Source: a virus (lineage: Duplodnaviria > Caudoviricetes). Taken from it: 50,230 bases of DNA. This document shows positions 19,834 through 36,131 of the stretch, one piece after another. Position 1 is the stretch's first letter. Each line of letters starts with the position of its first letter. The translations under genes were made by a program, and so were the position numbers. The notes below the pieces were generated by a model. It had not been told where the DNA came from and did no database searches. It saw only the letters and a program-made list of their open reading frames with translations. The stretch spans positions 1 to 50,230 of IMG/VR virus record IMGVR_UViG_3300030012_000996; one strand, given 5' to 3'.

Positions 19834-20042
19834 ATGAAGACACGCCACCTATCAACTGGGGAGACTATTACATGATATGTGTTGGCATGATGAACATGAG
19901 GCCTATAGACTTCTGGAATATGTCGCCTAGAGAAATGTATTTAGCTATCAAAGGATTCAAGAGGTTCCACGCTGCTGACGAACAAGAAAAGCCTATGGAT
20001 AGACAAGAGCTGGATAAATTAATGGAGTTATACCCAGACTAA
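19821..20042 (+). CDS. gpT segment reached by -1 frameshift (gpGT fusion 19489-20042)
   Basis: -1 frame is open from the A9 run: SYRVDEDTPPINWGDYY...FWNMSPREMY...LMELYPD; its stop overlaps the tape-measure ATG. Confidence 0.8.
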   Translation, partial: SYRVDEDTPPINWGDYYMICVGMMNMRPIDFWNMSPREMYLAIKGFKRFHAADEQEKPMDRQELDKLMELYPD

Positions 20043-21952: not shown

Positions 21953-22814
21953 GTTAATATCAATGCCTACAAGCCCAAACTTCATAAGAAGTGATTGGTC
22001 TCTTGTCAGAACTGTGGGAACAACAGTAAGCCCATTTACCGGGAAGACTAAAACCCAAGAGTTTGACGGAGTTTACTGGACTGCAGACGTTGCTTTACCG
22101 CCGATGAGAAGATCGCAGGCCGTTGAATGGCAGTCATTTCTTTTGGAACTTAACGGAACCGTGAATCATTTTAAGTTTGCAGACCCTGACGCATTAACAA
22201 ACACAGGCACATACAGTACGGGCTTTTTGACATCTGAACTTAGAACAAACGAAAGTTCAGTAACGCTTTCTTTTAGCAATCAAACTATAACTGCAGGTGC
22301 ATCTACATTTAGTGGTGCAAAAGAGGGAGATTTTATAGTTGTTACAGGTGCAACCAATGAAGATAACAACGGTACACATAAAATAACAACAGTTACTAGC
22401 AATACGGTTGTCGTAACATCTAGTACGTTCACTACGGAGTCAAACACCGCTAGTTGCAAGGTAAGAACCAATGTCAAGGGTGCTACTGGATTATCACTCC
22501 TGGCTTCAACAAATGCTGCTACAGGGACAATTAAAAAAGGAGACTATTTAAGCATTCAGTCTGCTGCCAGTTCCACAGGAACGCCTGCGCAGTTAGTTAT
22601 GGTGACGGAAGACGCAACCGCAACCGCTGATAGCGGTAAAGACTTCTACGGTGTAGCTATACAACCAAAATTAAGGTCGGACCTTGCTACAGGACATTAC
22701 GCAGTATTTACAAACCCAAAAGGGACATTTAGGCTCACATCTAATGAGGTTAGTTGGTCAGCAGACCGAATATCAAACTATGGCATTAGCTTTTCTTGTA
22801 TTGAGGTAATCTAA
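21945..22814 (+). CDS. distal tail protein with inserted beta domain
   Basis: SPFTG...W.ADVALPPM N-terminus and FSCIEVI C-terminus; GTG start after the tape measure. Confidence 0.7.
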   Translation: MAKLISMPTSPNFIRSDWSLVRTVGTTVSPFTGKTKTQEFDGVYWTADVALPPMRRSQAVEWQSFLLELNGTVNHFKFADPDALTNTGTYSTGFLTSELRTNESSVTLSFSNQTITAGASTFSGAKEGDFIVVTGATNEDNNGTHKITTVTSNTVVVTSSTFTTESNTASCKVRTNVKGATGLSLLASTNAATGTIKKGDYLSIQSAASSTGTPAQLVMVTEDATATADSGKDFYGVAIQPKLRSDLATGHYAVFTNPKGTFRLTSNEVSWSADRISNYGISFSCIEVI

Positions 22815-23456
22815 GTGGCTACTAGACAAGGACTAGATAGCTCTATAGTAAATCGTCTAGGAGCAGACGAACAAGCTCTATTCTTTGCCGTCAAAGCAGA
22901 ATTTGACACAGATGACATTAGGGTATGGTCAGGCATAGACGATATTACAATCAGTTCAGAAACATACACCGGTGCAGGAACACTTCTAAACGTAAGCAAC
23001 ACAGAGGACAACCTTGAATTAAAGTCTAACGGCGTAGTAGTCGCTTTGTCCGGCATGGACGCTACTGTAGTAAACATGGCTCTTACGGAAAACTATCAAA
23101 ACAGACCTATTACTATATTCATGGGATATGTAATGGGTGGGACAAACGAGGTCGCAGGAACGCTTACTTTGTTCAAGGGTAGAATGACTAGCCTTGTGAT
23201 AAACGACACTCCTGAAGGCTCCACAGTGACCATAGACGCGGAAAATAGACTGGTTGACCTTGATAGGCCTTCTAACCTTAGATACACGAAGGAATCCCAA
23301 AACTTTCTTTTTTCTGGCGATACTGGGTTTAATCGCGTTGCATCGCTGCAAGACAAACAGATTAATTGGGGTAAGACATCTAGTGGACCTGGCGGAGGCG
23401 GTTCTGGCAGCGGTCAACATGAATACCAAGACAGCTACAGAAACATAGGCAAATGA
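22815..23456 (+). CDS. minor tail / baseplate hub protein
   Basis: WSG, YTGAG, FKGRM, RYT.ESQ, GD.GF, INWG. Confidence 0.75.
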   Translation: MATRQGLDSSIVNRLGADEQALFFAVKAEFDTDDIRVWSGIDDITISSETYTGAGTLLNVSNTEDNLELKSNGVVVALSGMDATVVNMALTENYQNRPITIFMGYVMGGTNEVAGTLTLFKGRMTSLVINDTPEGSTVTIDAENRLVDLDRPSNLRYTKESQNFLFSGDTGFNRVASLQDKQINWGKTSSGPGGGGSGSGQHEYQDSYRNIGK

Positions 23457-23866
23457 AAAAACTACCTAATTGGCAAGCTATGTTTGACTCCTTCGTAAAA
23501 CACAATAACTTTCCTTTTGAATGGGGAAGAAACGATTGTTGCAAATTCAGCAACGCAGTCATTAAACAAATAACAGGTCAGGATTTAATACCACAACAAT
23601 TAAAGTGGCATGATGAGGAAAGCGCCTTAAAAGCGATAAAATCTTACGGCGGTAATTTGGAAAATAGTATTGAAAAAGCATGCAACGAAAAAGACGTGGG
23701 CGAAATAAACAAAGCATTTATGACGTGTGGTGATTTAGTTTTATATAGCCAGAACGGATCGGTTTTAGTGGGTATGTGCAACGGCTTCGGAATACTAACA
23801 CCTACAGACGACGGCATAGGCGTAGTTGATTGTGATACTGCTTACAGGGTTTGGAGATTTGATTAA
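23453..23866 (+). CDS. NlpC/P60-like tail-tip protein
   Basis: FEWGRNDCC..F motif and GD motif; position before the tip protein. Confidence 0.75.
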   Translation: MKKLPNWQAMFDSFVKHNNFPFEWGRNDCCKFSNAVIKQITGQDLIPQQLKWHDEESALKAIKSYGGNLENSIEKACNEKDVGEINKAFMTCGDLVLYSQNGSVLVGMCNGFGILTPTDDGIGVVDCDTAYRVWRFD

Positions 23867-26800
23867 TGGCTAAACAGATAAAACAAGCTCTGATTGCTGC
23901 GGTAATTGTTTTCGGCGGAGCACTGTTGGCTGGAGCCAGTGTAGGTGCATTCGGCACCTTTGCTATGGGAACAGCGGCAACAATGGCAACGCTTACCTTT
24001 GCTACTACCTTACTGGGCAGCGTTATAGGCAAAATGACCTCAAAGGGTATTGATGCATCTGGTGGAAACTTTGGAACTAAATTTGCTACTAGAGCGCCCT
24101 TAGCGCCTAGACAGATTGTTTACGGCGAGTGTCGTGTTGGTGGAACGATTGTGCATATGGAAACAGCAGGTACAGACAATCATATGCTGCACATGATAGT
24201 AGCAGTAGCAGGACATGAAATTGAGTCTATAGAAACGGTACGATTGAATGACATAGATTTAACTACAACTACTAGCACAATAAATGGTGAAACTGTACAC
24301 GAAGTAACTAGTCCTGCATTTGTAAATACAGAAAACGGCTTTGCTTTCACTAGCGGTAGGCTTATTAGATTCACCAAACATCTAGGAGCAGATGATCAGG
24401 CGGCAGATAATTTCGCAATACAGTCATTAGCAGGAACGAGCGGCTCAATAACAAGCACTGATAGATTTAGAGGAGTTGCCTATGTTTACATGCAACTTGT
24501 ATTTGACGCTGAAAAGTTTGGTGGTGGTTTGCCTGGAATATCATTCATCGTAAAAGGAAAAAATGTTTATGACCCGAGAACTGGCGCAAATGCAACAACA
24601 GACTTACAAAGGTCTAACCCGGCTCTTATCATAAGAGATTACCTTACCGACACACAGTACGGCCTAAAGGCAACGGCTTCAGAGATAAATGATACTACAA
24701 ATGCAGGTGGCATAGCCTCTGCAGCAAACACATGTGATCAGCAAGTAACCTTATCCGACGGCTCTACGCAGGAGAGAAGATATACAGCTAACGGATTTAC
24801 TAATTTCAGTGCTGACGGAAACGGCGTGCTTGAATCGGTACTTAGCTCTATGGCAGGAAAGATGTCTTATGTTAACGGTCAGTTCACAGTTTTTGCAGGC
24901 GCATCACAAACACCCAGCATAACCATTACTGATGACGATTTATTGCAGCCAATATCGGTTTCAACAAATTCTAGCTCTGGTGATTTATATAATTCAGTAA
25001 AGCCTATGTATGTAGATGCGTCACTTAACTTTACATCAACAGATGCAGAGGTTTATCAGGATTCAACATTCTTGAACGCAGACACTCCGAGCGGAGAGAG
25101 TTCAGCGAATTACGTTAAACAAATGGAAACACAGTTGCCTTTCACTGTTACAGACACTATGGCGCAAAGATTAGGGCGCATAGCTTTGAAAAGTCAGAGA
25201 CAGACAACATCACTAACTGCTTTAGTTAGCTTAAAGTTTATGAGGCTACAGCCTAACGACTGGGTATATTTAACAAACGAAAGATTAAGCTACTCACAAA
25301 AAACCTTTGAAGTTTTATCAACAAACATGGAAGTCATACAAGACGGAGACGTAAATGTATTGGCTGCAAGATTAGAATTAAAAGAGGTAGAAGCTGCAGT
25401 ATTCAATTTCGCAACGAATGACTACACAACAGGTCAGGCCGAGGGTTCGGACGTATCTACAGGAGATTATTCTGTAACAGCGCCTACAAACCTTTCACTA
25501 GCGCAGCAAAACGCCGTTGACGGAACCACGAGCAAGGTTGACATACTTGTTTCCTGGACTAACAACGCAAGTGATAAGGTAACACTAACAGAGATCACTT
25601 ATAAGCTAAGCACCGATAGCAACTACACATCTGACTTCACAGCAGGCAAGGGCGTAACGAAGGCTTCCATACCGAATGTCGTTGTTGGCAAAACCTACAA
25701 CGTCAAGATAAGGCACATAGATGTAAACGGTGTTGCTAGTGATTACACAAGTGCAGTCAATATTACTATAGCTGCAGCTAGTTCTGCGCCTTCAACACCC
25801 TCAAATCTATCGGCATCATCAAGCAAAGGGCAGATATTGGTTTCATGGACTAACCCTAACAACAGCGATTTAAGAGCCGTAAAGGTTTATAGAAAGACAT
25901 CTAACTCTACGCCTACTAACGATGATGACTTAGTAGATACGGTTGCTGGTGAGCCAAATGCCGTTACGACAACAATTTTCGGTGACCAGGACGGGCTTAC
26001 CGCAGGCACTACCTATTATTTTTGGGTAAGGGCAATCAATCATTCAGGACAGCACTCGTCATTTAGCAGTTCAGTAAATGGTAACTTTGCTGCAGCAGGT
26101 GTAGCAGACGGCGCAATAACAACTCTTAAATTAGCAGCAAACGCTGTTACGCAAGCCAAGATTGCAGTTGATGCTATACAAGGATCGGTTATAGCTGCAG
26201 GAGCAATAGTAGAAAGCAAAATAGGAACAGATGCAGTCACCACTGCAAAAATAGCAGACGATGCTGTTACCAATGCACTTATAGCGACTGATGCAGTAAA
26301 TCAAGACTCTATTGCAGCTAATTCAGTGACGGCATCAGAAATAGTTGCTGGAACCATAACCGCAAGTGAGATTGCATCAAACGCTATAACAACGGCAAAA
26401 ATTAATGCAGGCGCAGTGAATACAGACAAGCTCGCAGCAAACGCAGTGACGGCTGCAAAAATTACCGCTAACACTATTACGGCATCACAAATAGCAGCAG
26501 GAACTATTACGGCAACGGAAATAGCATCAAATGCTGTTACTACAGACAAGCTAAACGCAGACGCTGTAACGGCAGCGAAGATAACAGCTGGAACTATTAC
26601 GGCTACAGAGATAGCAAGTAATACGATTACAGCAGATAGAATTAATGTAACTGACTTAGCTCTTAACTTTGAGGCTGCTACAGTATCAGGTGCAACAATA
26701 GGTAGTTGGAACAACAATACAATGCGATTGCTTAAAGTTGCGGATATAGGTACTGCAACAGGAATATATCACATCATGTGTCGTGTTTTCGGTGGTACTG

Positions 26801-27141
26801 GTCAGGTCAAAACGCTTTCAGTTGTTGTAGGTGACGGAACATACGGTAGTGGCGCTAGTTTTGAGCTAAGAAATGATTTTTCCTACAGCAACGCAGCATT
26901 CGCTACTGATTTGATAATACAAGATCAAGGTTACGCACAATTTAACTCCGGGCAATCACAACACTGGTCTGGGGTAGATAGATTTGACTCAACATATAAA
27001 ATGGTACAAAAAGATATAATTGTTAGGAAAGTAAGCGATACAAGCAGAACACTTAAGCTATTTATTCTTGCACAAGGCGACGGCAACAGTAGACAGCTAT
27101 CAAATGTTCAATACGGTTATTACAGATTCACAGAAATATAA
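23866..27141 (+). CDS. tail tip / host-specificity protein J-like, with FN3 domains and repeat stalk
   Basis: IVYGECRVGG, VKGKNVYDPR, SNPALIIRDYL; two FN3-like units; AVTxAKI repeats. Confidence 0.88.
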   Translation: MAKQIKQALIAAVIVFGGALLAGASVGAFGTFAMGTAATMATLTFATTLLGSVIGKMTSKGIDASGGNFGTKFATRAPLAPRQIVYGECRVGGTIVHMETAGTDNHMLHMIVAVAGHEIESIETVRLNDIDLTTTTSTINGETVHEVTSPAFVNTENGFAFTSGRLIRFTKHLGADDQAADNFAIQSLAGTSGSITSTDRFRGVAYVYMQLVFDAEKFGGGLPGISFIVKGKNVYDPRTGANATTDLQRSNPALIIRDYLTDTQYGLKATASEINDTTNAGGIASAANTCDQQVTLSDGSTQERRYTANGFTNFSADGNGVLESVLSSMAGKMSYVNGQFTVFAGASQTPSITITDDDLLQPISVSTNSSSGDLYNSVKPMYVDASLNFTSTDAEVYQDSTFLNADTPSGESSANYVKQMETQLPFTVTDTMAQRLGRIALKSQRQTTSLTALVSLKFMRLQPNDWVYLTNERLSYSQKTFEVLSTNMEVIQDGDVNVLAARLELKEVEAAVFNFATNDYTTGQAEGSDVSTGDYSVTAPTNLSLAQQNAVDGTTSKVDILVSWTNNASDKVTLTEITYKLSTDSNYTSDFTAGKGVTKASIPNVVVGKTYNVKIRHIDVNGVASDYTSAVNITIAAASSAPSTPSNLSASSSKGQILVSWTNPNNSDLRAVKVYRKTSNSTPTNDDDLVDTVAGEPNAVTTTIFGDQDGLTAGTTYYFWVRAINHSGQHSSFSSSVNGNFAAAGVADGAITTLKLAANAVTQAKIAVDAIQGSVIAAGAIVESKIGTDAVTTAKIADDAVTNALIATDAVNQDSIAANSVTASEIVAGTITASEIASNAITTAKINAGAVNTDKLAANAVTAAKITANTITASQIAAGTITATEIASNAVTTDKLNADAVTAAKITAGTITATEIASNTITADRINVTDLALNFEAATVSGATIGSWNNNTMRLLKVADIGTATGIYHIMCRVFGGTGQVKTLSVVVGDGTYGSGASFELRNDFSYSNAAFATDLIIQDQGYAQFNSGQSQHWSGVDRFDSTYKMVQKDIIVRKVSDTSRTLKLFILAQGDGNSRQLSNVQYGYYRFTEI

Positions 27142-27477
27142 ATGGCTACTCATACTTTTAATTACACATACAGTTTTGATAGCATTTCAACAATGCCATT
27201 GAGCATGACAGACGATACGCAGATAGTTAAAAACGTATGCGTAAGCGTTACAGCGGTTGATGCTGCGGATAACACAAAGACACTAACTGAAAAAATGTAC
27301 GCGTCTTTAGACGGGATTTATAGCTATGAAGTTAGCGGTTTGCCAAGTGATTTCATACAAGTTGATGATTTAACTGATGCAAAAGCTATAGAATGGTGGC
27401 AAGCTACAACAACAGTAGATAATCTTAACATTTACTTTACATGGCAAATATATGGAGTTGCCGAAAATGATGAATAG
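27142..27477 (+). CDS. hypothetical tail-associated protein
   Basis: Abuts the J stop codon; 111 aa. Confidence 0.65.
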   Translation: MATHTFNYTYSFDSISTMPLSMTDDTQIVKNVCVSVTAVDAADNTKTLTEKMYASLDGIYSYEVSGLPSDFIQVDDLTDAKAIEWWQATTTVDNLNIYFTWQIYGVAENDE

Positions 27478-27485
27478 GAGAAAAT

Positions 27486-27866
27486 ATGCAAGACGGAAGA
27501 TTTAGCGGAGACATGGATAGAAACGAGGTAGAAATGGACTTGAACAAGTTCATGGCTATGGTTGAGGAGATTGGGGCCCTTAAGGATAAAATCAGGGAAC
27601 TAGAAGATGCTACAAACGTAAACCCGCATCAGAAATGGATTCACTTAGCGCAGGCCGTAGACTCCTGGCGCATATTTCCCAGAGTGTTCCTAAGCGTTTA
27701 CATATTCTTGCTTTACTACTCAACAATGTGGTTTATGGCATTAGAGGAACCAAGCCTAGAGCAAAGTGGTCTCATATCTATCATAGTAGGTGCTGGGGCG
27801 GCATGGTTCGGTTTATACGCAGGCACAAGCGGTGCAAGCAAGAGTTTTAAAGGAGAAGATAAATAA
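27486..27866 (+). CDS. two-TM membrane protein, holin-like
   Basis: WRIFPR followed by two hydrophobic helices; AGGAG RBS. Confidence 0.6.
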   Translation: MQDGRFSGDMDRNEVEMDLNKFMAMVEEIGALKDKIRELEDATNVNPHQKWIHLAQAVDSWRIFPRVFLSVYIFLLYYSTMWFMALEEPSLEQSGLISIIVGAGAAWFGLYAGTSGASKSFKGEDK

Positions 27867-27896
27867 AAAAAAAGAGAGCCGAAGCTCTCTCTTTTT
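27865..27896. terminator. bidirectional intrinsic terminator
   Basis: A-run-GAGAGC-CGAA-GCTCTCT-CTTTTT. The minus strand reads a cUUCGg tetraloop followed by a long U-run. Confidence 0.88.
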
Positions 27897-28213
27897 CGCT
27901 CAATTCACCGATTGACTAACTAGATTCATTGTAAAGCTACTCCTAAGAGTGTATATGCACCTGACTTTGAGACTTGATCCGCCGATCTTATGCTTCCTAG
28001 TTTGCGACTAAGACTTCTCATTACCAGTCAATAACTATGCAATCTTTCTTATATTGCTATGTTAACGCCTTCTGCTATATTCTCACCTAAAAAGTTGATA
28101 AGTCTTTTTATTTTGCACTATCTTTAAAAGATAGGGTGAACTTCTCTTTTTACATCAGAGTGGGTTAATTAATCCCTGTCTATCAATCTGATGCGTCAGC
28201 TCTCCATTAACAT
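27866..28213 (-). ncRNA. candidate ~350-nt structured non-coding RNA
   Basis: Own promoter and terminator; longest ORF I found is 31 codons; multiple nested stems (see findings). Confidence 0.6.
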
Positions 28214-28219
28214 ATGATA

Positions 28220-28261
28220 ATTATGTCTGCATAAAAAATAAAGTAAACCCTTTTTGGAATA
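28220..28261 (-). promoter_or_regulatory. leftward promoter with TATTCC motif (copy 2), driving the ncRNA candidate
   Basis: TATTCCAAAAAGGG-TTTACT-16 bp-CATAAT. Confidence 0.65.
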
Positions 28262-28370
28262 TATTTTAATTTTTTTTTCTTGGGTGTTATGTTCAGCTAT
28301 GATAGGATTTACAAGACTGCCCTAAGACTAGGGATAATTTGGCAAAGCCATAGTCATTTCAGGATTGACT

Positions 28371-29480
28371 ATGAATGATGACGACCAAAGAAAGCACGAT
28401 AACATAATTGTATGGGCTGCGCTGATGTTCTGCATAACTTTAGTTGCCGGTATATCCATAAACGTTAACGCCCAGTCTAGCCAACAATCAGGTACTGCTT
28501 GCGTAAACGGATCACAGTATTGTGAAAACAACAACCTATATACGTCAAACAACACGACTACGAATAATACAAATTCAAATACGAACACAAATACTAATAC
28601 GTCAACTTCAACGGCGACTAATACAAACTCAAACACAAACGTAAATACGACGACATCTACAGCGACGAACACGAATTCAAACACCAACGTTAATACTTCA
28701 AACAACGTCAACGTTAATACTTCTACTGCTACTTCAACTTCAAATAACACTAATACGAATGTAAATACTTCTACCTCTACGGTAAATTCTACTGTTAACC
28801 AGAACGTTAATAATACTAATAATTCAACGTCTAATAACACGAATCAGAATACGAACATAAATCAATCCACCTCTGAATCAAATGTTACGACAAACAATGT
28901 TAATGAAAATAACAATAATACGACCAGTAATAACACGAACCGTAATATAAACGAGTCAAATAGCACCCAGACAATAAACCAAAACATTAAATCGGAAGCG
29001 CCCCCTGCAAGCGCTATAGCTCCAAGTATAATGAGCTATTCGCAAGACCTTTGCACCACAGGAGTTAGTGGGGCATTTCAAGGACAAGTATTCGGTTTGT
29101 CTGGTGGTAAAACCATTGTTGATCAAAACTGCGAAAGGTTGAAACTTTCTAAATATTTGTATGACATGGGTATGAAAGTCGCGTCAGTAGCTCTACTTTG
29201 CCAAGATGAGAGAGTATTTAAGGCTATGGAAATGGCAGGTACGCCTTGCCCTTACAACGGCAAGATCGGTAAAGAAGCATCAGAAGAATGGGCCAAGAAT
29301 CAATCAAAGAGACCTGATGCAGAAGATAAGGAAAAAGAGTTTATCAAACAATGCACTAAAGAGGCTAACCCTAAAAGAGCAGGCATCAATAAAGATGTTG
29401 TTGGTATAGTCAAGAAAACATATACAAGAAAAACTAAAACCGATAAACAATGCCGTCAAGAATTTTATGCTACGCAGTAG
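28371..29480 (+). CDS. exported/membrane-anchored Asn/Thr-rich protein with Cys-rich C-terminal domain
   Basis: N-terminal hydrophobic segment ending VNA-Q; ~150-aa N/T/S tract; DLC...NCERLK...LLCQD...GTPCP. Confidence 0.8.
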   Translation: MNDDDQRKHDNIIVWAALMFCITLVAGISINVNAQSSQQSGTACVNGSQYCENNNLYTSNNTTTNNTNSNTNTNTNTSTSTATNTNSNTNVNTTTSTATNTNSNTNVNTSNNVNVNTSTATSTSNNTNTNVNTSTSTVNSTVNQNVNNTNNSTSNNTNQNTNINQSTSESNVTTNNVNENNNNTTSNNTNRNINESNSTQTINQNIKSEAPPASAIAPSIMSYSQDLCTTGVSGAFQGQVFGLSGGKTIVDQNCERLKLSKYLYDMGMKVASVALLCQDERVFKAMEMAGTPCPYNGKIGKEASEEWAKNQSKRPDAEDKEKEFIKQCTKEANPKRAGINKDVVGIVKKTYTRKTKTDKQCRQEFYATQ

Positions 29481-31684
29481 CTAGTCTGCTATCATTTGGT
29501 GTATATGGTCAATATACATATGAGGCAAACCAACCGTTATACGACCTACACGATAACGCAAACAACTTCAATGGCGAGTTAGCTTACGAGGTAGTTGATG
29601 ACGGTATTTCACCTGCAATTAGCCTTCCTTTTAATTTTACTTTTTATGGGTCTACATTTACAAAAGCGAGAATGGCTACAAATGGTTGTCTTCACTTCGG
29701 CGATACTGGCAGCTATTGCAATGACTATACTCCTGACCCTATTAACGGGCAACACACTTACACCATTTACGGTTTCTGGACTGACCTCATAAGAGATAAC
29801 GGCTCCCGCATGAAATCATACGGGGACTCTGACAAGATGATATTCGGTTGGTACAAGATGAGGGAGTACAACCGTGCATCTGACAATAGCTTTGAGATTA
29901 TATTGTGGAACAACAATTCCTTTGATATACGGTACAGAGAACTAGACATAATCAATCATGATGTGCTTATCGGCGAGGTGGGTGCAAACAAAGATAATTC
30001 GTACACCTATTACTACCATGATGAATGCTCTACTGGCACAACAAACGCTAGTAATTGCGTAAACACCAACTGGAACGCTACAACAATAAATACAACTCTA
30101 GAGAACGGAGGCTCGTTGTATGGCGCAGGAAGTGGCAATGGTATTGACTGCAGTAATCCTCTGAACGATAGCAGTTGTAGTGGATATGCTGACGCCTACC
30201 TAACACAACAATGCAACATAACACAGCTTTACAGCGAATCATGTCCTAATTACTGGGAAGCCTACGACGACCAACAATGCGACGACGACCCACAGTACGC
30301 GCCTTTCTGTCCTGGCTACAGACAGGAACAATCGGTGGCTTTCTTTGATGACACCAGCGTTGATTACGGATTTATAGATGAACAGGAACAGTTTGCTACG
30401 GGCAACTTTGATGACGGATTTCACCAACAAGATTTTCAAGATCAATTTTTCGTAGTTGAAATATTTGAAGAAGAAATGTTTACTCCTTACGAGGAATTTG
30501 AAGATTTCAATGAATACTTTGATGATCCTTTTACAGATGAAGTTATTGTTTTCTTTGATATTGAACCTTTGCCTTTTCAAGATTTTGACAGACCGCACAG
30601 CGACCCGCAGCACAACGATGAAATTTTGTTAGACGAGTTCGTTTTTCAAGAAACATTTTTAGTAGAGGACTACACAGAACCAAACACTTTTATAGAGTTC
30701 AATTCAGTAGAGGAGTTGGAAGAATGGTTTGAAGAAGAAACTAACGAGCATTTTGAGGAAAGGCCCGAGGAAAGACTGGCGGACTTAGACGAGCCAGAAG
30801 AAGAATTCATAGAAGAAATATTTGAGGAAGAAGCAGTTGAGGAAGTCTTTGAAGAAATAGAAGAAATGCAAATAGCTATGGAAGAAGAAAGAATTGCCGA
30901 AATGGATCAAGAAAACAGAGAAGATGCTATTGAAGACGTAGAAGAAGAATTTGTGGCTGTTGAATCAGATACGCCTACTGGAAAAAGTAAATTAATGATA
31001 ACAGCGCTCAATGTCGTTAAAGCAGGCATCAAAACAGCTTCTAACAGCTATTCTCAGGCTTCAGGAGGCTCTCAAACAAATAATTCAGGCAATAACACTT
31101 CTTCATCAAACAATGCAACAGGAAGCTCTACAGCGTCAGCCGGTGGAATTAGCACTTCAAGCAGTCCTAGCATGTCAGACCAGTTCGCAAGCGCAACCCA
31201 GCAAAGCAATCAAGTTCTATCCATGTCCGGGGACAGTGGTGCCGGAGTTTCTATGTCTGTAACGCCACTTCCAACTTTTGATAACTCTGCGTCTATGGCT
31301 ATAGCTGATGTGCAGGTTCAGAACGTACAGGGCGAAATTGATACCGCTATGTCGGGTGCAATGACATCATCAGAGGCAGATCAAATAGCAGATCAGATCA
31401 TTGCAGCTAATATAGAGGCTCAAAAAGAGGAGATTGAACAGGAACAGCAGGAAACCGGAGAATATGCAGATGAGTCAACTTTGATAGCTCTCATAGGCTA
31501 CGTACCAAGTTTTAACAACTACACCCAGATAACTGTTCCAGACGCGCAAGACTGGTACTCTAGTCAAACCATATATGAATCTGCTACACTTGATGATAAC
31601 ACTAATGCCTTTTTTGGGTTAGTTAACGATAATTTAAACGGTCTTAATCAGATGATGAAGGACCAACCTAATATTTGGAGATAA
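29450..31684 (+). CDS. exported 744-aa protein: nidogen-like beta domain, Cys repeats, acidic linker
   Basis: Signal-like N-terminus; LPFNFTFYG..F....MATNG and FWTDL (NIDO-like); CxxxPxxxxxCxGY-type repeats; Glu/Asp/Phe-rich middle. Confidence 0.75.
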   Translation: MPSRILCYAVASLLSFGVYGQYTYEANQPLYDLHDNANNFNGELAYEVVDDGISPAISLPFNFTFYGSTFTKARMATNGCLHFGDTGSYCNDYTPDPINGQHTYTIYGFWTDLIRDNGSRMKSYGDSDKMIFGWYKMREYNRASDNSFEIILWNNNSFDIRYRELDIINHDVLIGEVGANKDNSYTYYYHDECSTGTTNASNCVNTNWNATTINTTLENGGSLYGAGSGNGIDCSNPLNDSSCSGYADAYLTQQCNITQLYSESCPNYWEAYDDQQCDDDPQYAPFCPGYRQEQSVAFFDDTSVDYGFIDEQEQFATGNFDDGFHQQDFQDQFFVVEIFEEEMFTPYEEFEDFNEYFDDPFTDEVIVFFDIEPLPFQDFDRPHSDPQHNDEILLDEFVFQETFLVEDYTEPNTFIEFNSVEELEEWFEEETNEHFEERPEERLADLDEPEEEFIEEIFEEEAVEEVFEEIEEMQIAMEEERIAEMDQENREDAIEDVEEEFVAVESDTPTGKSKLMITALNVVKAGIKTASNSYSQASGGSQTNNSGNNTSSSNNATGSSTASAGGISTSSSPSMSDQFASATQQSNQVLSMSGDSGAGVSMSVTPLPTFDNSASMAIADVQVQNVQGEIDTAMSGAMTSSEADQIADQIIAANIEAQKEEIEQEQQETGEYADESTLIALIGYVPSFNNYTQITVPDAQDWYSSQTIYESATLDDNTNAFFGLVNDNLNGLNQMMKDQPNIWR

Positions 31685-31688
31685 GTTA

Positions 31689-32048
31689 ATGGACTGGTTT
31701 CAAAATAAAACAACACAACTAATTGCCCTAGTGGGCATTGTCGGAACTCTTGCCGGATTTGGTTATAGCGGCGCAACCTATGTTAATCGCCTTGAAAACC
31801 TTGAGGCAAAGATAGGCGGAATAAGCGAAGCGGAAGATAACGTGCAGGCCATAGAAGAAAGGTTCGCATCAATAGAAACTTCTGTACAGTTCTTGGAAAA
31901 AGAATTAGACGGAATTGACATGCCAGACGTTACAGAAATCAAGACTGACATAGCTACGTTGAAAGCTGACTTGCAAAGTTTAGACAATAACCTAGAAAAA
32001 TTAGAGACTAAGCTAGATAAGAAAGACGACAACCCGCTTAACGGATAA
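31689..32048 (+). CDS. N-terminal TM plus coiled-coil protein
   Basis: LIALVGIVGTLAGFGY followed by heptad repeats, ending NPL. Confidence 0.75.
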   Translation: MDWFQNKTTQLIALVGIVGTLAGFGYSGATYVNRLENLEAKIGGISEAEDNVQAIEERFASIETSVQFLEKELDGIDMPDVTEIKTDIATLKADLQSLDNNLEKLETKLDKKDDNPLNG

Positions 32049-32251
32049 TGCGCTTCTTAATTCTATGCGTAGTTCTTACTGCTTGTGCGTCCGCACCAGT
32101 GCAAAAAGAATGGAACGATAAATACGACCCTGCAGCATGGCGCAAGCAATTTGAGGAATGCAGGGATTTGCTGTACACGGCTTTTCCAGAGGAAGTGCAA
32201 AGAGACGAATGGTCAGAGTGTATGAATAGAGACTATGAAAACAATTTATGA
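32048..32251 (+). CDS. small lipoprotein
   Basis: Lipobox LTA-C after a hydrophobic stretch. Confidence 0.7.
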   Translation: MRFLILCVVLTACASAPVQKEWNDKYDPAAWRKQFEECRDLLYTAFPEEVQRDEWSECMNRDYENNL

Positions 32252-32453
32252 CTGGCTAATAAGTCTATTTATACATAGATACCAGATTAGAGTATCTTTC
32301 AATAAAGAGTATGGAGATGCCGACGATAAGGTCTACATAAGTAAAAAAGTCCTGGTTCAAAAAGAAAATCACCTTAAGTTCAGAGATATGAATAACAAAA
32401 TAATAGAGTACAGAAGCGCAGGCGGCCTGAACTACATAATTGAGGATATGTAA
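32235..32453 (+). CDS. hypothetical protein
   Basis: Overlap-coupled on both sides. Confidence 0.65.
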   Translation: MKTIYDWLISLFIHRYQIRVSFNKEYGDADDKVYISKKVLVQKENHLKFRDMNNKIIEYRSAGGLNYIIEDM

Positions 32454-32848
32454 TGCAGCAGATACTTATAGGAATTATTATCGTTTTAGGTTTATCTACC
32501 TACTATCTCTATAGCCAAAACCAGATAATCACAGCTAACAACAAAGCACTAGAAGGGGCGATAGAAACACAAGAAGAAACTATTAAAACTCTGCAGAACG
32601 ACTTTGAGCTTCAGACAGAGCAATTACAAACATTAACAGTCAAAAGTCAGGCAGCGCAAAGAGAGTTAAATAGATATACACAGTTTATACAGAATTATGA
32701 ATTGACAGCTAAGATACTTGCTGATCCTAAAGAAATGCAGAGGAAAATTAACAATGGAACAAAACACATCATGGAGGACATTGAGAAAATCAGCGGTACC
32801 GTTGATAGTCTTGATGACGGCCTGCAGTTGCAGCCTGCTTCCGACTAA
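32453..32848 (+). CDS. i-spanin (Rz-like)
   Basis: N-terminal TM plus long coiled coil; overlaps a lipoprotein gene. Confidence 0.75.
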   Translation: MQQILIGIIIVLGLSTYYLYSQNQIITANNKALEGAIETQEETIKTLQNDFELQTEQLQTLTVKSQAAQRELNRYTQFIQNYELTAKILADPKEMQRKINNGTKHIMEDIEKISGTVDSLDDGLQLQPASD

Positions 32849-33134
32849 GCAAATAGAAATATCGGCAAAGCCTATTGATAGAAAAATAGTGCAGCCTATT
32901 ATGCCGAGAGAGATTGATCTAAAGCAGTTGCAATGGATAGCTGTAACTCCGGATAACTGGGAAGAGCAACTTGCGATAATAGAAAAACAGGAAGGCGAGT
33001 TAGTATTTCTGGCTATGACTATTCCAGATTACGAAGTAATGGCCTACAACATGCAAGAAATCAAGAGATACATCACAGAATTAAAAGACGTGGTCGTATA
33101 TTACAGAACAGTCACGACAGAAAAAAAAGAATAA
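32754..33134 (+). CDS. o-spanin (Rz1-like lipoprotein)
   Basis: LIVLMTACSC lipobox and Pro-rich segment; exact start uncertain. Confidence 0.72.
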   Translation: MEQNTSWRTLRKSAVPLIVLMTACSCSLLPTKQIEISAKPIDRKIVQPIMPREIDLKQLQWIAVTPDNWEEQLAIIEKQEGELVFLAMTIPDYEVMAYNMQEIKRYITELKDVVVYYRTVTTEKKE

Positions 33135-33200
33135 TTATTATGAAAAAACCTTTAAATCTGCTAGGCTTAAATTTTCATATATTTCATTTAGGAGATAAAT

Positions 33201-33362
33201 ATGGGAATAATAGGAGAATGGATAGGGATAATCACAGGCGTCGTATGCATAGCATCAATAGTCTGCGCATTAACACCTACACCTAAAGATGATGCAATGA
33301 TCGGTAAGTTCTATAAATTTTTAGAATTACTGGCCTTAAACATCGGAAAAGCTAAACAGTAA
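33201..33362 (+). CDS. 53-aa membrane protein, holin-like (below the ORF-track cutoff)
   Basis: AGGAG RBS; MGIIGEWIGIITGVVCIASIVCALTPTPKDD...LALNIGKAKQ. Confidence 0.75.
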   Translation: MGIIGEWIGIITGVVCIASIVCALTPTPKDDAMIGKFYKFLELLALNIGKAKQ

Positions 33363-33393
33363 AATTAAAGGTGCAGAGGCACCTACTTAAATT

Positions 33394-33786
33394 ATGGCAA
33401 CAGTTACACCATTTGTTTACAACGCAATACTGGAAAAGGTCGTAGACGGAGACACGATAGATGTTACTCTTGACTTGGGGTTCAGTGTCTTTCTGCATAA
33501 ACAACGCTGCAGGTTGGCAGGCATAGATACTCCCGAGTCAAGAACCCGGAACCTAGAGGAAAAGGCTCTTGGAAAAAAGGCATCTGCTAGACTTTCAGAA
33601 TTGTGCGTCGGTTCATTCAAAATAAAATCACTAGGTAAAGGTAAATATGGGAGAATACTCGCGGTTCCTTACACTGAAGACGGCAAAGACATTTGTAAAA
33701 TGCTTATTGACGAAGGTCACGCGGTTGAATACTGGGGCGGAAAGAAAACAGCAAAAGTCAGAGATGACGGAACATGGGGGCAATAA
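33394..33786 (+). CDS. thermonuclease (SNase) family protein
   Basis: VVDGDT, RLAGIDTPE, GKYGRILA, LIDEGHA. Confidence 0.9.
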   Translation: MATVTPFVYNAILEKVVDGDTIDVTLDLGFSVFLHKQRCRLAGIDTPESRTRNLEEKALGKKASARLSELCVGSFKIKSLGKGKYGRILAVPYTEDGKDICKMLIDEGHAVEYWGGKKTAKVRDDGTWGQ

Positions 33787-33787
33787 A

Positions 33788-34231
33788 ATGCACATTTCAC
33801 AAGAAGGTATAGATTTAGTAAAGAAGTTTGAGGGTTGCAAACTGGAGGCATATCAATGCGCAGCAGGAGTTTGGACTTGCGGTTACGGTTCAACCAGAGG
33901 AGTGCAACAGGGCGACGTCTGGAGCCAAGAGAAAGCAGAGATAATGCTGGTAGACGAACTAGAGGAATACGGCTCATACGTAGAAGAACTGGTAACGATT
34001 CCCCTGAATCAATGCCAGTATGACGCTTTGACTTCCTGGACGTTCAATCTCGGGCCGTCTAACTTGAAAAGCAGCACACTGTTAGCAGTCCTTAATCAAG
34101 GCAAGTACGAGGAAATCCCATACCAAATTAAAAGGTGGAACAAAGTAAGCGGTGTTGTGAATGACGGACTTATTAGAAGACGGGAAGCAGAAGCATTGCT
34201 TTTTGAGGGTAAAAGTTGGGAACACGTCTAA
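33788..34231 (+). CDS. GH24 phage lysozyme (endolysin)
   Basis: FEG....AYQCAAGVWTCGYG, FNLG, GLIRRREAE; probable start MHISQEG. Confidence 0.93.
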   Translation: MHISQEGIDLVKKFEGCKLEAYQCAAGVWTCGYGSTRGVQQGDVWSQEKAEIMLVDELEEYGSYVEELVTIPLNQCQYDALTSWTFNLGPSNLKSSTLLAVLNQGKYEEIPYQIKRWNKVSGVVNDGLIRRREAEALLFEGKSWEHV

Positions 34232-34447
34232 ATGGCTCTAAGCAAGACACAGAACAAAAGACTAGGAGTGATATTATCAGTAATGTTCAACGAGGAGACG
34301 CCGCCGGAAATGCTAAACGAAGTTGTAGAGCTGGGCTTCGTGGAGAAGATTGATAATTCTTTTCAACTCACAGATAAAGGCATTGATGAAAAAAACCGAT
34401 TGTGCACGCTGTCGGGCCTTAATATCAAGTATTCTAGCGAAAAGTGA
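34232..34447 (+). CDS. hypothetical protein (possible winged helix)
   Basis: ELGFVE...FQLTDKG pattern. Confidence 0.55.
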   Translation: MALSKTQNKRLGVILSVMFNEETPPEMLNEVVELGFVEKIDNSFQLTDKGIDEKNRLCTLSGLNIKYSSEK

Positions 34448-34448
34448 A

Positions 34449-35006
34449 TCAGACCCAGTCGTTTCCCTCGTACCAACCAACCAAGCTGAATCTCTCGCCC
34501 TTAGTTACCTTAGTGACCCTATGATAAAGAAAAGAAGGAAAAACTAAGATAGTACCCCTCTCTCGCAGTTTCTTCTGGTCAAGTTTCCCCATATCCTTAC
34601 TAAACTCAAAATCGCCGCCTACGTAATCTATGCTGTCTGATAGCTGAACTGTTATGCTTAGCTTTCGTTGTGACGAATTGTCAAAGATGTTTGAGTCCAT
34701 GTGGTAATCGTAGAAATCACCGGGTCCGTACTTAGCGATCTGGAACTCCTGAAAACCGTTTAGCTGGACGCCGAAACATTCGCGGTTTGCCATGATTATG
34801 TACTGGCGCATAATCCTATCAAGGTAAGCTCCATTCTCTGAATCGTACTCGCAAGGCAGAATGTTAGACGATCTCACGTTCTTGTTGATACTTGAAACGT
34901 TGCCTATCTCGGCTTCCTTAGGCTTGCCCTCAATATATAGGGCCTTGATAGCATCGCAGTGTTCTTCGCTTAACTCCGCTTGCCAAGAATAGCAATAGGA
35001 GTTCAT
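34449..35006 (-). CDS. 2OG-Fe(II) oxygenase
   Basis: HxD (YHMD), RKLSITVQLS, GGDF, FPSFLYHRV, RFSLVGW. Confidence 0.92.
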   Translation of the reverse strand: MNSYCYSWQAELSEEHCDAIKALYIEGKPKEAEIGNVSSINKNVRSSNILPCEYDSENGAYLDRIMRQYIIMANRECFGVQLNGFQEFQIAKYGPGDFYDYHMDSNIFDNSSQRKLSITVQLSDSIDYVGGDFEFSKDMGKLDQKKLRERGTILVFPSFLYHRVTKVTKGERFSLVGWYEGNDWV

Positions 35007-35101
35007 CAGCTTCTATTTCTAAATAAATATATAAGAGCTCTGATTGAGTCCTTAGGTAAGTGTCGTAGGTGTTTAGGTATCTTTACATTCTGCACTATCA
35101 T
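35006..35101 (-). CDS. 31-aa micro-ORF
   Basis: MIVQNVKIPKHLRHLPKDSIRALIYLFRNRS; GGGG RBS; TGATG-coupled to the oxygenase. Confidence 0.55.
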   Translation of the reverse strand: MIVQNVKIPKHLRHLPKDSIRALIYLFRNRS

Positions 35102-35109
35102 GTTTCCCC

Positions 35110-35205
35110 CTATCTAAAAGTAATAAAGTCAGATGCGTCTATATCATCTAATGCAATAAAAACAACGGTTGTTAAGTTTGCAATTATTAACAAATCAATA
35201 ATCAT
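35110..35205 (-). CDS. 31-aa hydrophobic micro-ORF
   Basis: MIIDLLIIANLTTVVFIALDDIDASDFITFR; AAGGA upstream. Confidence 0.45.
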   Translation of the reverse strand: MIIDLLIIANLTTVVFIALDDIDASDFITFR

Positions 35206-35338
35206 TATCCTTGCCCCACTTGCAATTAATGATGTCTTCTAACTCACCCGATGTGTTGTCATTGACTACGAAGTCAACAACTATCCAGAACATTATCCAG
35301 ACTGCAACAGGCATTATTAACCAGAATATATAGTTCAT
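35195..35338 (-). CDS. 47-aa membrane micro-protein
   Basis: MNYIFWLIMPVAVWIMFWIVVDFVV...; GGGG RBS. Confidence 0.6.
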   Translation of the reverse strand: MNYIFWLIMPVAVWIMFWIVVDFVVNDNTSGELEDIINCKWGKDNDY

Positions 35339-35433
35339 AGTTTCCCCTTGATCCATAAAACCATAGCTAAGAATATACCACAAGCGCCGTAAAGTGCTAA
35401 AAATCCTATGACTATATTAATAAATATTTCCAC
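35335..35433 (-). CDS. 32-aa membrane micro-protein
   Basis: GTG start with AGGAG RBS; MEIFINIVIGFLALYGACGIFLAMVLWIKGKL; coupled on both sides. Confidence 0.55.
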   Translation of the reverse strand: MEIFINIVIGFLALYGACGIFLAMVLWIKGKL

Positions 35434-35774
35434 TAGACTTGCACTCCTTTCAAAAATTCTGTGCAAAACATTTCGTCAATATCCTCAAGTTCCATGTTGC
35501 CGAAATCGTTTTCAGAGTACCAGCCAGATTTAACAAGAGCTATATCGTTGTTTTTTCTGCTTATCAGCTTGGCAAATTTATAGGCTTGTTCTTTGCTTTC
35601 GTAATCCTCACTTTCAACAAAAGAATCGGCATAGCCACCGTTTGAGAGGAAATCTTCTCTAGTTAATTTGTAACCGTGTTTTTTCATTTCTTTTTGCTGA
35701 TCCAGTCTGAAAAGCATGTTTTCTTTAACAGGACAAAAGTATTCAACAAAATACATTCTAGTTAGGCTTTTCAT
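35433..35774 (-). CDS. hypothetical protein
   Basis: Coupled member of the leftward operon. Confidence 0.7.
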   Translation of the reverse strand: MKSLTRMYFVEYFCPVKENMLFRLDQQKEMKKHGYKLTREDFLSNGGYADSFVESEDYESKEQAYKFAKLISRKNNDIALVKSGWYSENDFGNMELEDIDEMFCTEFLKGVQV

Positions 35775-35965
35775 CAGTGAAGTACCCTCTCTCTACAGCC
35801 GTTCTTGAGGAACATAGCCAGATCGTAGTTGTCGGCGGCACTCAATATAGACTCAACCTCTTTAAGCGACATGCTCATTAGATCGGCTTGGTACTTTATT
35901 GACAGCTTAGCCATTTTCTTTTCCAGTGCGGACATCTCCCTAAACTCGTCGTTCTTAATTGACAT
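35774..35965 (-). CDS. hypothetical protein
   Basis: Likely start MSIKND with GAGG RBS. Confidence 0.65.
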   Translation of the reverse strand: MSIKNDEFREMSALEKKMAKLSIKYQADLMSMSLKEVESILSAADNYDLAMFLKNGCRERVLH

Positions 35966-36131
35966 TTTCCACCTCTCTAGGTTCGTAGCTTGCTGTGTGG
36001 CCCGTAGCCCATATCTCGTCAACGCGTCTCTTTGCGTCGGCTTCCTTGTTGTAGGTCGCTATCTTCTTGTGCTCACCGTATCTACCTATGTGCGCGAAAT
36101 ACTGGTACACGTCATATACTGTCGTCTTCAT
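35955..36131 (-). CDS. 58-aa hypothetical protein (not in the ORF track)
   Basis: MKTTVYDVYQYFAHIGRYGEHKKIATY...EPREVENVN; ATGA overlap with the upstream gene. Confidence 0.65.
   Translation of the reverse strand: MKTTVYDVYQYFAHIGRYGEHKKIATYNKEADAKRRVDEIWATGHTASYEPREVENVN

Follow-up and report, generated by a model that had tools for sequence, protein, structure and literature searches.

Introduction

Some small phage lipoproteins, such as Llp of T5 and Cor of T1 and phi80, act in exclusion and are encoded next to tail genes, while the spanin genes of T7 (18.5 and 18.7) sit just before the large terminase gene. Among multigene systems directed to the envelope, the curli module (T8SS) of phages has been described as transferable, with a share of 7.8% of the genome, and aggregation, superinfection defence or import have been proposed as its role (Wittmers et al. 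2022, PMC9599517). Here we describe a locus in a complete virus record with terminal repeats, whose whole stretch of 50230 bases was analyzed and is referred to below as the window. It belongs to an exported cassette of three genes that is very common in aquatic phages but uncharacterised, and that is joined here by a local fourth gene; no published description of this cassette was found in the literature searched. What is new here is the either/or exchange of the cassette with the curli module at one slot.

The locus and its gene string

The four genes g1 to g4 take up 7.9% of the window, in agreement with the share of about 8% given in the earlier note, and lie on the same strand, with overlaps of 31 nt between g1 and g2 and of 1 nt between g3 and g4, and a gap of 4 nt between g2 and g3. 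Their export features were predicted by in-house hydropathy and lipobox rules, and the description of four tightly coupled genes with export signals was confirmed by the ORFs and their overlaps, together with N-terminal features that fit export. The features of the locus and of its surroundings are:

27486-27866, + strand: x2, 126 aa, with two C-terminal membrane helices (67-83, 94-112), holin-like by shape only
27866-27897, both strands: bidirectional terminator-like hairpin, flanked on either side by T/A runs (- strand, 14-pair stem then T8; + strand, 7-pair stem)
27893-28213, - strand (inferred): abundant small RNA in the spacer, from metatranscriptome contigs
28300-28308, + strand: TGATAGGAT, candidate extended -10 element
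28365 (TTG; alternative ATG 28371)-29480, + strand: g1 (ORF list)
29450-31684, + strand: g2 (ORF list)
31689-32048, + strand: g3 (ORF list)
32048-32251, + strand: g4 (ORF list)
32235-32453, + strand: g5, 72 aa, lacking an export signal, kept downstream whether the slot holds the cassette or the T8SS
32453-32848, + strand: i-spanin (phrog_739, 9.9e-11)
32781 (lipobox start)-33134, + strand: o-spanin, overlapping the i-spanin (phrog_812, 3.4e-11; lipobox scan)
33201-33362, + strand: small membrane protein (phrog_9685)
33394-33786, + strand: SNase-like nuclease (PF00565, 1e-12)
33647-34231 (ORF; real start probably later), + strand: phage lysozyme (PF00959, 7.3e-43)

The cassette opens a single gene string that runs from g1-g4 through g5, the spanins, the small membrane protein and the nuclease to the lysozyme, and no terminator-like site was found on the + strand between 28300 and 34400. 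The lysis functions, previously taken to be encoded separately, are in fact directly downstream of g4. With both canonical spanins and a lysozyme encoded in the window, none of the lysis steps is obviously missing.

On the upstream side, x2 matches phrog_10198 (2.7e-20), a family that carries no functional annotation, and it immediately precedes g1 in 73 loci, with a gap of at most 8 bases in 48 of them. The spacer RNA is real and abundant: four marine metatranscriptome runs (one study, at most two samples) yielded contigs of it that are 312-321 nt long and show 0 differences, at depths of 67, 12, 76 and 58 versus 0-4 for the neighbouring genes, and its end at 28213 falls 7 nt below the promoter-like site found on the - strand at 28247-28220. 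No Rfam family matched it. The proposal that RNA and cassette form one unit is nevertheless not supported, because the spacer is not conserved: by blastn, the 498 bases gave no match in 304 cassette loci and just two (43-51 bases, both outside the RNA) in 389 loci, and x2 often abuts g1, as described above. The TGATAGGAT element is present as reported, but is not enriched in the genome (11 matches with at most one mismatch versus 10.0 expected). The leader (28309-28375), described as rich in hairpins, does fold better than shuffled sequences, but modestly so (z -2.79; 3/200 shuffles folded equally well).

A conserved three-gene cassette

The protein g1 consists of a signal, an Asn/Thr-rich stalk of about 170 aa, a head stabilised by cysteines, which spans residues ~224-335, and a basic tail. 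By the hydropathy rules, its N-terminus has hydrophobic residues 11-36 followed by VNA|Q, and its composition (18.9% Asn, 15.4% Thr, 9 Cys) bears out the earlier description of a signal/TM, N/T-rich and Cys-rich protein. The PHROGs profile search matched residues 110-308 to phrog_20531 (E 1.1e-12), a family without functional annotation; the head family comprises 6893 clusters at the 90% identity level, or 1258 at the 50% level, with an invariant pair of cysteines (C26 and C52 of the head). The predicted structure of g1 has a pLDDT of 83, and structure searches matched no solved fold to the head model. Among cultured phages of very different hosts, the head retains 35-60% identity (tblastn).

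In g3, one membrane helix near the N-terminus (residues 8-27, hydropathy rules) is followed by a coiled coil (coiled-coil profile matches), as had been claimed, and its only invariant columns in 38 diverse sequences are N115, P116 and L117, near the C-terminus. Gene g1 and g3 always occur together. A gene matching the g3 profile was present on the same strand, within 6 kb after g1, in all 178 loci that have at least 3.5 kb downstream of g1, and the g3-type protein carried NP[LIMVF] within its last 12 residues in 177/178. The largest ORF between the two had a signal-like N-terminus in 219/229 loci. The conserved unit is therefore g1, an exported middle gene and g3, and the window genes, which served as the seed, show this same series of a g1 head gene, an exported middle gene and an anchored coiled-coil gene ending in Asn-Pro-Leu. 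These features recur in hundreds of loci, far beyond chance. Cultured phages with the cassette include podo-, sipho- and myophages that infect Pelagibacter, Roseobacter and Ralstonia. The cultured SAR11 phage HTVC023P is also among the carriers of the g1 head family, and its type is the most abundant pelagiphage group according to PMC12753301. The earlier idea of a four-gene operon thus holds for the coupling of all four genes, whereas the gene neighbourhoods, in which the order g1, middle gene, g3 is widely kept, show that g4 is confined to a sub-lineage and that the ncRNA is not conserved with the cassette.

It is very improbable that these are ordinary virion or assembly proteins that merely resemble exported ones. 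Structural genes do adjoin the cassette in several phages; however, the signal-like N-termini of the middle genes and the invariant Cys pair are conserved, a membrane anchor is present, and some sister phages lack the cassette genes altogether. No virion family was named for g1-g4 by Pfam, PHROGs, NCBIfam or PADLOC.

The middle gene and the local lipoprotein

In the window, the middle protein g2 shows a signal (a short hydrophobic run up to VYG|Q, hydropathy rules), a beta-sandwich head (~50-190), Cys repeats (~234-287), a polyacidic disordered linker, a Ser/Asn-rich stretch and a conserved C-terminal tail. The signal, the Cys repeats (11 Cys) and the acidic character (net charge -117) noticed earlier stood, but the nidogen-like assignment found no Pfam support: the NIDO profile gave no match to g2 at E<=0.1, and none of 40 g2 relatives matched any Pfam family at E<=0.001. 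The head, modelled only within the full-length chain, gave at most weak beta-sandwich structure matches (Z up to 5.0); it bears a weak likeness to the beta-sandwich domains found at the N-terminus of glycan-active enzymes, with 116-137 residues aligned at an rmsd of about 4 A (Z 4.2-5.0). Of 8000 candidates scored, 2211 were g2 relatives at E<=0.001. The protein is modular, its last ~225 aa being conserved while heads swap; the tail profile matched 106/106, 31/31, 12/19, 1/3 and 0/70 loci in five locus groups and extends to other phage groups, while g2 compared with HTVC202P gp25 and HTVC023P gp46 gave BLASTP E values of 0.16 and 0.33.

As for g4, a protein of 67 aa, its assignment as a lipoprotein agrees with the lipobox LTAC with Cys13 (lipobox scan, a prediction). 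Its profile had only 29 matches, compared with 106 loci of the window's lineage with complete g1-g3, and it matched no family in Pfam, PHROGs, NCBIfam or PADLOC. It is a sub-lineage-specific addition to the cassette.

Another conceivable role is superinfection exclusion or receptor masking, in which the periplasmic or membrane proteins would block DNA entry by later phages or, set free at lysis, would cover receptors on debris, sparing the progeny, with g4 acting like Llp and Cor. A variable g2 head on an otherwise conserved protein is what would be expected of a part tracking host surface sugars, as is compatible with the weak likeness to glycan-active enzymes; the cassette is also often right behind tail-fibre genes, and g4 is a small Cys-containing lipoprotein. 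Nevertheless, we consider this role unlikely, given that the genes lie in a late/lysis string and not among early genes, that the g1 head is unusually conserved across hosts for a typical exclusion gene, and that no exclusion family was matched in PADLOC or Pfam.

Exchange with the curli module

Relatives of the window's phage were also selected by x2, keeping those with at least 2.5 kb downstream. Among these 61, 19 carried the cassette (g1) and 42 carried CsgF/CsgG, with 0 carrying both and 0 neither. The alternative is a CsgF/CsgG/FecR/cyclase module (curli, T8SS), for which Pfam gave CsgF 2.7e-19, CsgG 1.9e-47, FecR 2.1e-9 and CHASE2 6.7e-24 with cyclase 1.4e-19; the window genes had no Pfam match to curli/T8SS families. 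In four locus maps, g5, the i-spanin and the lysozyme follow in both variants, and in the x2 tree (78 rows) the cassette and T8SS labels need at least four changes. The two modules are mutually exclusive occupants of one slot within this phage lineage. This pattern comes from a single lineage, and with a protein as short as x2 (126 aa) the tree may be blurred by recombination; the genes next to the module are not the same in HTVC008M (T8SS) and Mosig (cassette), both myophages, so that the slot sharing described here is that of the x2 lineage.

The earlier envelope-directed reading is supported by the conserved set of predicted exported and membrane proteins and by the curli envelope module held by sister phages in the same slot. 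We favour, at a level just short of probable, a putative role of the cassette as an accessory module of the envelope that can be exchanged and is not core lysis machinery, for which the conserved exported set and the either/or swap both argue. Against it, the role of T8SS in phages is itself only proposed, the swap pattern comes from one lineage, the interaction of g1, g2 and g3 is a proposal, and no outer-membrane passage component is encoded, so that g1 and g2 may stay below the surface until lysis.

The lysis setting

The surroundings suit a lysis role equally well. Where 4 kb of sequence was available on either side (72 loci), 53 had a lysozyme, a spanin or a GTA-type holin within 4 kb. 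One freshwater podophage group has tail fibres, g1, the middle gene and g3 in that order, followed by a membrane protein of 161 aa and then a GH24 lysozyme, and in another locus group a GTA-type holin (PF11351, 8.4e-19) lies behind the cassette. It is possible, though rather doubtful, that the cassette is a helper of lysis or egress: a lipoprotein-independent, spanin-like or envelope-loosening complex acting during or after endolysin action, with g3 as the i-spanin and g1/g2 engaging the wall or outer membrane, which would be essential where Rz/Rz1-type spanins are absent and auxiliary here. The topology of g3 (N-terminal inner-membrane anchor and coiled coil, predicted periplasmic) is that of an i-spanin, and in the window translational coupling makes the cassette part of one string with the spanins, nuclease and lysozyme. 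In the complete pelagiphage genomes HTVC202P and Baldr, the lipobox scan found no plausible lipobox ORF, so that these phages may lack ordinary spanins, a point that also weighs against a purely accessory role; there the cassette immediately precedes the large terminase gene, as 18.5/18.7 do in T7. A search of 15 loci for lipobox ORFs within the cassette turned up nothing except for the signal peptide of one middle gene.

On the other hand, a canonical i-/o-spanin pair is already present in the window and many relatives, and the endolysin is 10-20 kb from the cassette in HTVC202P and Baldr. The match of g3 to spanin families (phrog_739, E 0.0025) is one of 24 to weak coiled-coil families, that is, coiled-coil noise. 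Moreover, sister phages with T8SS keep their spanins and lysozyme without the cassette, which is therefore dispensable for lysis in this lineage.

Proposed mechanism and significance

For the accessory envelope module, we envisage that, after Sec export, g3 would be retained in the inner membrane with its coiled coil of ~90 residues projecting into the periplasm, where its invariant Asn-Pro-Leu tip may dock the disulfide-stabilised g1 head and/or the conserved g2 tail. The outcome would be an anchored brush that combines a hydrophilic Asn/Thr stalk with a polyacidic spring, the latter bearing a head that is lineage-specific and probably binds sugars. As with the curli module that it replaces, the cassette would alter how the surface or envelope behaves in the infected cell and in lysis debris (sticking, aggregation, masking), and would perform no essential lysis step; g4 would be a separate add-on. 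More speculatively, the two modules could be interchangeable solutions to one late-infection task, the re-dressing of the dying cell's envelope, the cassette being a new Sec-only, inner-membrane-anchored assembly that joins a new g1-head fold to an Asn-Pro-Leu docking tip common to all carriers. Several of the phage groups most abundant in the ocean would have it, and in spanin-less carriers such as pelagiphages it might take over outer-membrane disruption too.

The cassette occupies a substantial part of the genome, yet its proteins match no characterised relative or fold, and the selective task served by the viral T8SS is probably served by it too. Near-identical phages that differ only in slot content are natural pairs for comparison. 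Should the lysis role be true, the cassette would represent a new way for phages without ordinary spanins to open the outer membrane.

Comparison with known systems

The nearest copies are "hypothetical proteins" of cultured phages: HTVC023P gp45-48, HTVC202P gp24-26, Baldr genes 001-004, HTVC115P gp54-52, Mosig 00202-00200, CRP-810 gp53-51 and RSP15 ORF122. They share with the window the g1 head (phrog_20531) and the order g1, exported middle gene, g3 with its Asn-Pro-Leu tip, but the heads of their middle proteins differ and a lipoprotein is absent from the copies in pelagiphages. For CRP-810, the annotations "OmpA family protein" and "lysozyme" were not borne out on checking.

With T5 Llp and T1/phi80 Cor, g4 has in common that it is a small Cys-containing lipoprotein encoded a few kb past a tail-fibre gene, but it differs from them in having no sequence match in the four databases searched. 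The cassette resembles the lambda Rz/Rz1-type spanins in the topology of g3, in its lysis-gene surroundings and, in the window, in the small lipoprotein that follows g3. Unlike them, it has a g3 whose homology is no better than noise and conserved partners that are two soluble exported proteins and no lipoprotein, and a genuine spanin pair is additionally present in the window.

The phage T8SS described in pelagiphages (CsgF, CsgG, CsgA/B, FecR and adenylate cyclase; PMC9599517) differs from the cassette in sequence and family, with CsgF or CsgG in 0/304 g1-selected loci, and the cassette has no outer-membrane channel, regulator or cyclase. In sister phages, however, the T8SS sits between x2 and g5/spanins/lysozyme, and both are multigene exported envelope sets, mobile between phage families, that take up about 8% of the genome.

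A conserved three-gene unit

On the evidence of its sequence relatives, the conserved unit in this part of the window is three genes, g1-g3, which we call the cassette, and g4 is a local addition, whose profile found only 29 matches. The features concerned are as follows.

27486-27866, plus strand: x2, a 126-aa protein gene just upstream of g1
27893-28213, probably minus strand (the contigs are strandless): a small, abundant RNA (about 320 nt), from metatranscriptome contigs and a promoter-like site
28365-32251, plus strand: g1-g4, four coupled genes, the last for a lipoprotein

The four-gene operon described in an earlier note does comprise four ORFs in tight coupling, and the export signals attributed to them are borne out as predictions by our own hydropathy and lipobox rules, with signal-like starts on g1 and g2, one putative membrane helix followed by a coiled coil in g3, and a lipobox in g4. 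The richness of g1 in Asn and Thr (18.9% and 15.4%) and the acidity of g2 (net charge -117) were likewise confirmed, and the nidogen-like assignment of g2 found no Pfam support. Upstream, the proposed element TGATAGGAT is present at 28300-28308, but its frequency in the genome is that of chance (11 vs 10.0 expected), and the 67-nt leader, which had been called hairpin-rich, has a fold modestly better than that of shuffled sequences (z -2.79).

Relatives were collected with five different g1 queries against viral contigs and one against genome contigs. Among loci with at least 3.5 kb of sequence downstream of g1, iterated profiles found a same-strand gene of g3 type no more than 6 kb from g1 in all 178 (98/98, 17/17, 35/35, 26/26 and 2/2 by locus group), and 177 of these 178 proteins carry NP[LIMVF] within their last 12 residues; when 38 diverse g3 proteins are aligned, Asn115, Pro116 and Leu117 are the sole invariant columns. 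In 219/229 loci the largest ORF lying between g1 and g3 begins with a signal-like segment, and in one freshwater group this middle gene overlaps both its g1-type and g3-type neighbours. In pairwise BLASTP comparisons, neither g2 nor g3 matched its pelagiphage counterparts significantly; relatedness emerged with iterated profiles. Against PADLOC and NCBIfam, g3 gave coiled-coil noise only. The genome-contig search, made with a 9-row alignment, returned 35 MAG contigs, in which the neighbouring genes are phage-like and whose taxon labels are so mixed that no host can be named. Our searches of the literature on HTVC023P/HTVC202P, pelagiphages, spanins/disruptins, nidogen and lysis cassettes turned up no description of the cassette.

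The window itself, a virus record that is complete at 50230 bases and carries terminal repeats, encodes a head protease, major head protein, tape measure, primase/helicase, large terminase, portal and a 1091-aa tail-tip protein, and has no DNA-level resemblance to any cultured phage. Its canonical spanin pair points to a Gram-negative host. Just 3' of the tail-tip gene lies a small acidic protein (27142-27477) with a match to DUF7936 below the Pfam cut-off (23.5 vs 27 bits).

The small RNA upstream of the cassette

Contigs of 312-321 nt identical to 27893/27902-28213 were found in four marine metatranscriptome runs, which belong to one study and at most two samples. Because these contigs reach depths of 12-76, against 0-4 over the neighbouring 16 kb (20000-36000 is almost uncovered apart from them), the spacer between x2 and g1 does give rise to an abundant RNA. 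One of its ends fits a promoter-like site on the minus strand, and a hairpin at 27866-27897 adjoins the other. It has no Rfam family match and no convincing ORF, and its predicted fold does not surpass that of shuffled sequences over 27898-28290 (z -0.15) and is weakly better over 27862-28213 (z -1.70). That this RNA and the operon may form one unit had been proposed earlier; since no relative of the RNA turned up in 389 related loci, and x2 abuts g1 in 48/73 relatives, it is not part of the conserved cassette.

Protein families and predicted folds

The head of g1 (residues ~224-335) matches PHROG 20531 and 12 phage records, namely six Pelagibacter phages, Roseobacter phage CRP-207, Ralstonia phage RSP15 (in two filings) and three uncultured phages, to which a second g1 query added Roseobacter phage CRP-810. 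The family is large, with 6893 of 6947 candidates scoring as relatives at E≤0.001, and with 1258 clusters at 50% identity. A model built from 50 sequences (pLDDT 83) predicts a beta hairpin followed by helices, and the Cys residues C26 and C52 are invariant. Foldseek against the PDB returned nothing at E≤0.001, the best score in a wide VIA structure search was Z 3.0, the BFVD matches were all uncharacterised viral proteins, and the ESM Atlas gave viral hypothetical clusters only. PDB sequence searches with the g1 and g2 profiles yielded 0 matches and 2 noise matches, respectively, and PADLOC and NCBIfam gave a single low-complexity match to g1, far below threshold.

Two existing labels in CRP-810 appear mistaken: the 'OmpA family protein' gp53 (locus L308, 4318-5073) is of g1 type and matches nothing in Pfam, and the 'lysozyme' at 5704-6126 of the same locus has the anchor, coiled coil and Asn-Pro-Leu tip of a g3-type protein. 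Some g1 relatives (P0264, P0265, P0276, P0374, P0384, P0385 and others) end in a hydrophobic, Leu/Phe-rich tail with no charged residue after it, which points to another means of tethering the head to a membrane. A further protein, about 60 aa long, starts with an 'HE(K/R)EC..RY' helix and ends in a membrane helix. It lies near the cassette in 36 loci, and in some phages it is joined to the N-terminal side of the g1 protein, replacing the signal peptide; it has no Pfam or PHROG family match.

L045 2008-2190 and L334 12644-12823; proteins P0377 and P0381: 'HE(K/R)EC..RY' protein

The g2 protein is modular: some relatives have just its head in common with it, others just its last ~225 residues; a profile of this tail matched 150/229 middle proteins, and 0/70 in the freshwater group. 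Its full-length model is mostly of low confidence (pLDDT 55.9), the parts modelled with confidence being a head of beta-sandwich form (~50-190) and a helical region with Cys repeats (~240-290), and single long helices dominated the matches in full-length fold searches. Between the modelled head and the N-terminal beta-sandwich domains of some glycan-active enzymes there is a weak likeness (Z 4.2-5.0), which we take only as a hint.

Lysis-gene setting and possible function

The lysis genes had been described as encoded separately, which is wrong, as they lie directly 3' of g4, in the order g5 (the next gene), an overlapping i-/o-spanin pair, a small membrane protein, an SNase-like nuclease and a phage lysozyme, and no terminator-like site was found on the plus strand between the cassette and these genes. 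As listed, the lysozyme ORF (33647-34231) overlaps the nuclease gene (33394-33786) by 140 bases; the lysozyme domain begins at residue 59, which makes an internal ATG the probable true start. Across the window's lineage, x2, nuclease, small membrane protein, spanins and lysozyme are found around the cassette in shuffled orders. A lysozyme cluster lies within 4 kb of the cassette in 172/302 loci. Of the 72 loci in which the cassette is complete and flanked by 4 kb on either side, at least 53 have a spanin, a lysozyme or a holin of GTA type no more than 4 kb away, a minimum because lysozymes were the only endolysins scored. Exceptions include the complete genomes of HTVC202P and Baldr, in which the cassette directly precedes the large terminase gene, the endolysin is 10-20 kb away, and our own lipobox scan found no plausible lipoprotein ORF.

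This setting, together with the topology of g3 and the existence of pelagiphage carriers that apparently lack spanins, gives real weight to the main alternative, that the cassette forms a spanin-like or lysis-assisting complex, which we nevertheless consider rather unlikely. The window's lineage has a complete holin-like/endolysin/spanin set with either of the two modules that occupy the slot between x2 and g5, spanins and lysozyme, and we read the cassette as an exchangeable accessory envelope module and not as a required lysis gene. As such a module, it would have the Asn-Pro-Leu tip of g3 dock onto the g1 head or the g2 tail, the g2 head might bind sugar, and the whole might alter the surfaces of cells or debris. 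Exclusion or receptor masking, a narrower form of this envelope reading, seems improbable. A complex prediction for the g1 head, the g2 tail and the periplasmic part of g3 scored 0.00 and gave no verdict, being uninformative either way.

A slot shared with the curli module

The new result here is that the cassette shares its slot with a curli module. Relatives were also fetched through x2 (80 sequences, 83-95% identical), and 61 of them extend 2.5 kb or more downstream. The g1 cassette is present in 19 of these 61 and absent from the other 42; in the same slot of those 42, gene maps and Pfam place CsgF, CsgG, FecR and a CHASE2-cyclase.

L334 7381-12647; also L347, L360 and L327: CsgF, CsgG, FecR and CHASE2-adenylate cyclase in sister phages

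Both modules together, and neither, occurred in 0/61 each, and CsgF or CsgG was found in 0/304 g1-selected loci. On an x2 tree of 78 rows (25 cassette, 53 curli), the labels require at least four changes (bootstrap range 4-5), a rough count because x2 is short. In the phage database, 7 CsgG records and 13 g1 records show no overlap. Between the myophages HTVC008M and Mosig a shared slot was not evident, because their neighbouring genes differ. In the sister phages, two small membrane proteins (98 and 85 aa) precede the curli genes, and the CsgG-FecR interval of about 570 bases, with no plus-strand ORF called, may hold the gene for a curli subunit. The CsgF/CsgG/FecR/CHASE2-cyclase set that shares the slot is the phage curli (T8SS) module described for pelagiphages by Wittmers et al. 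(PMC9599517).
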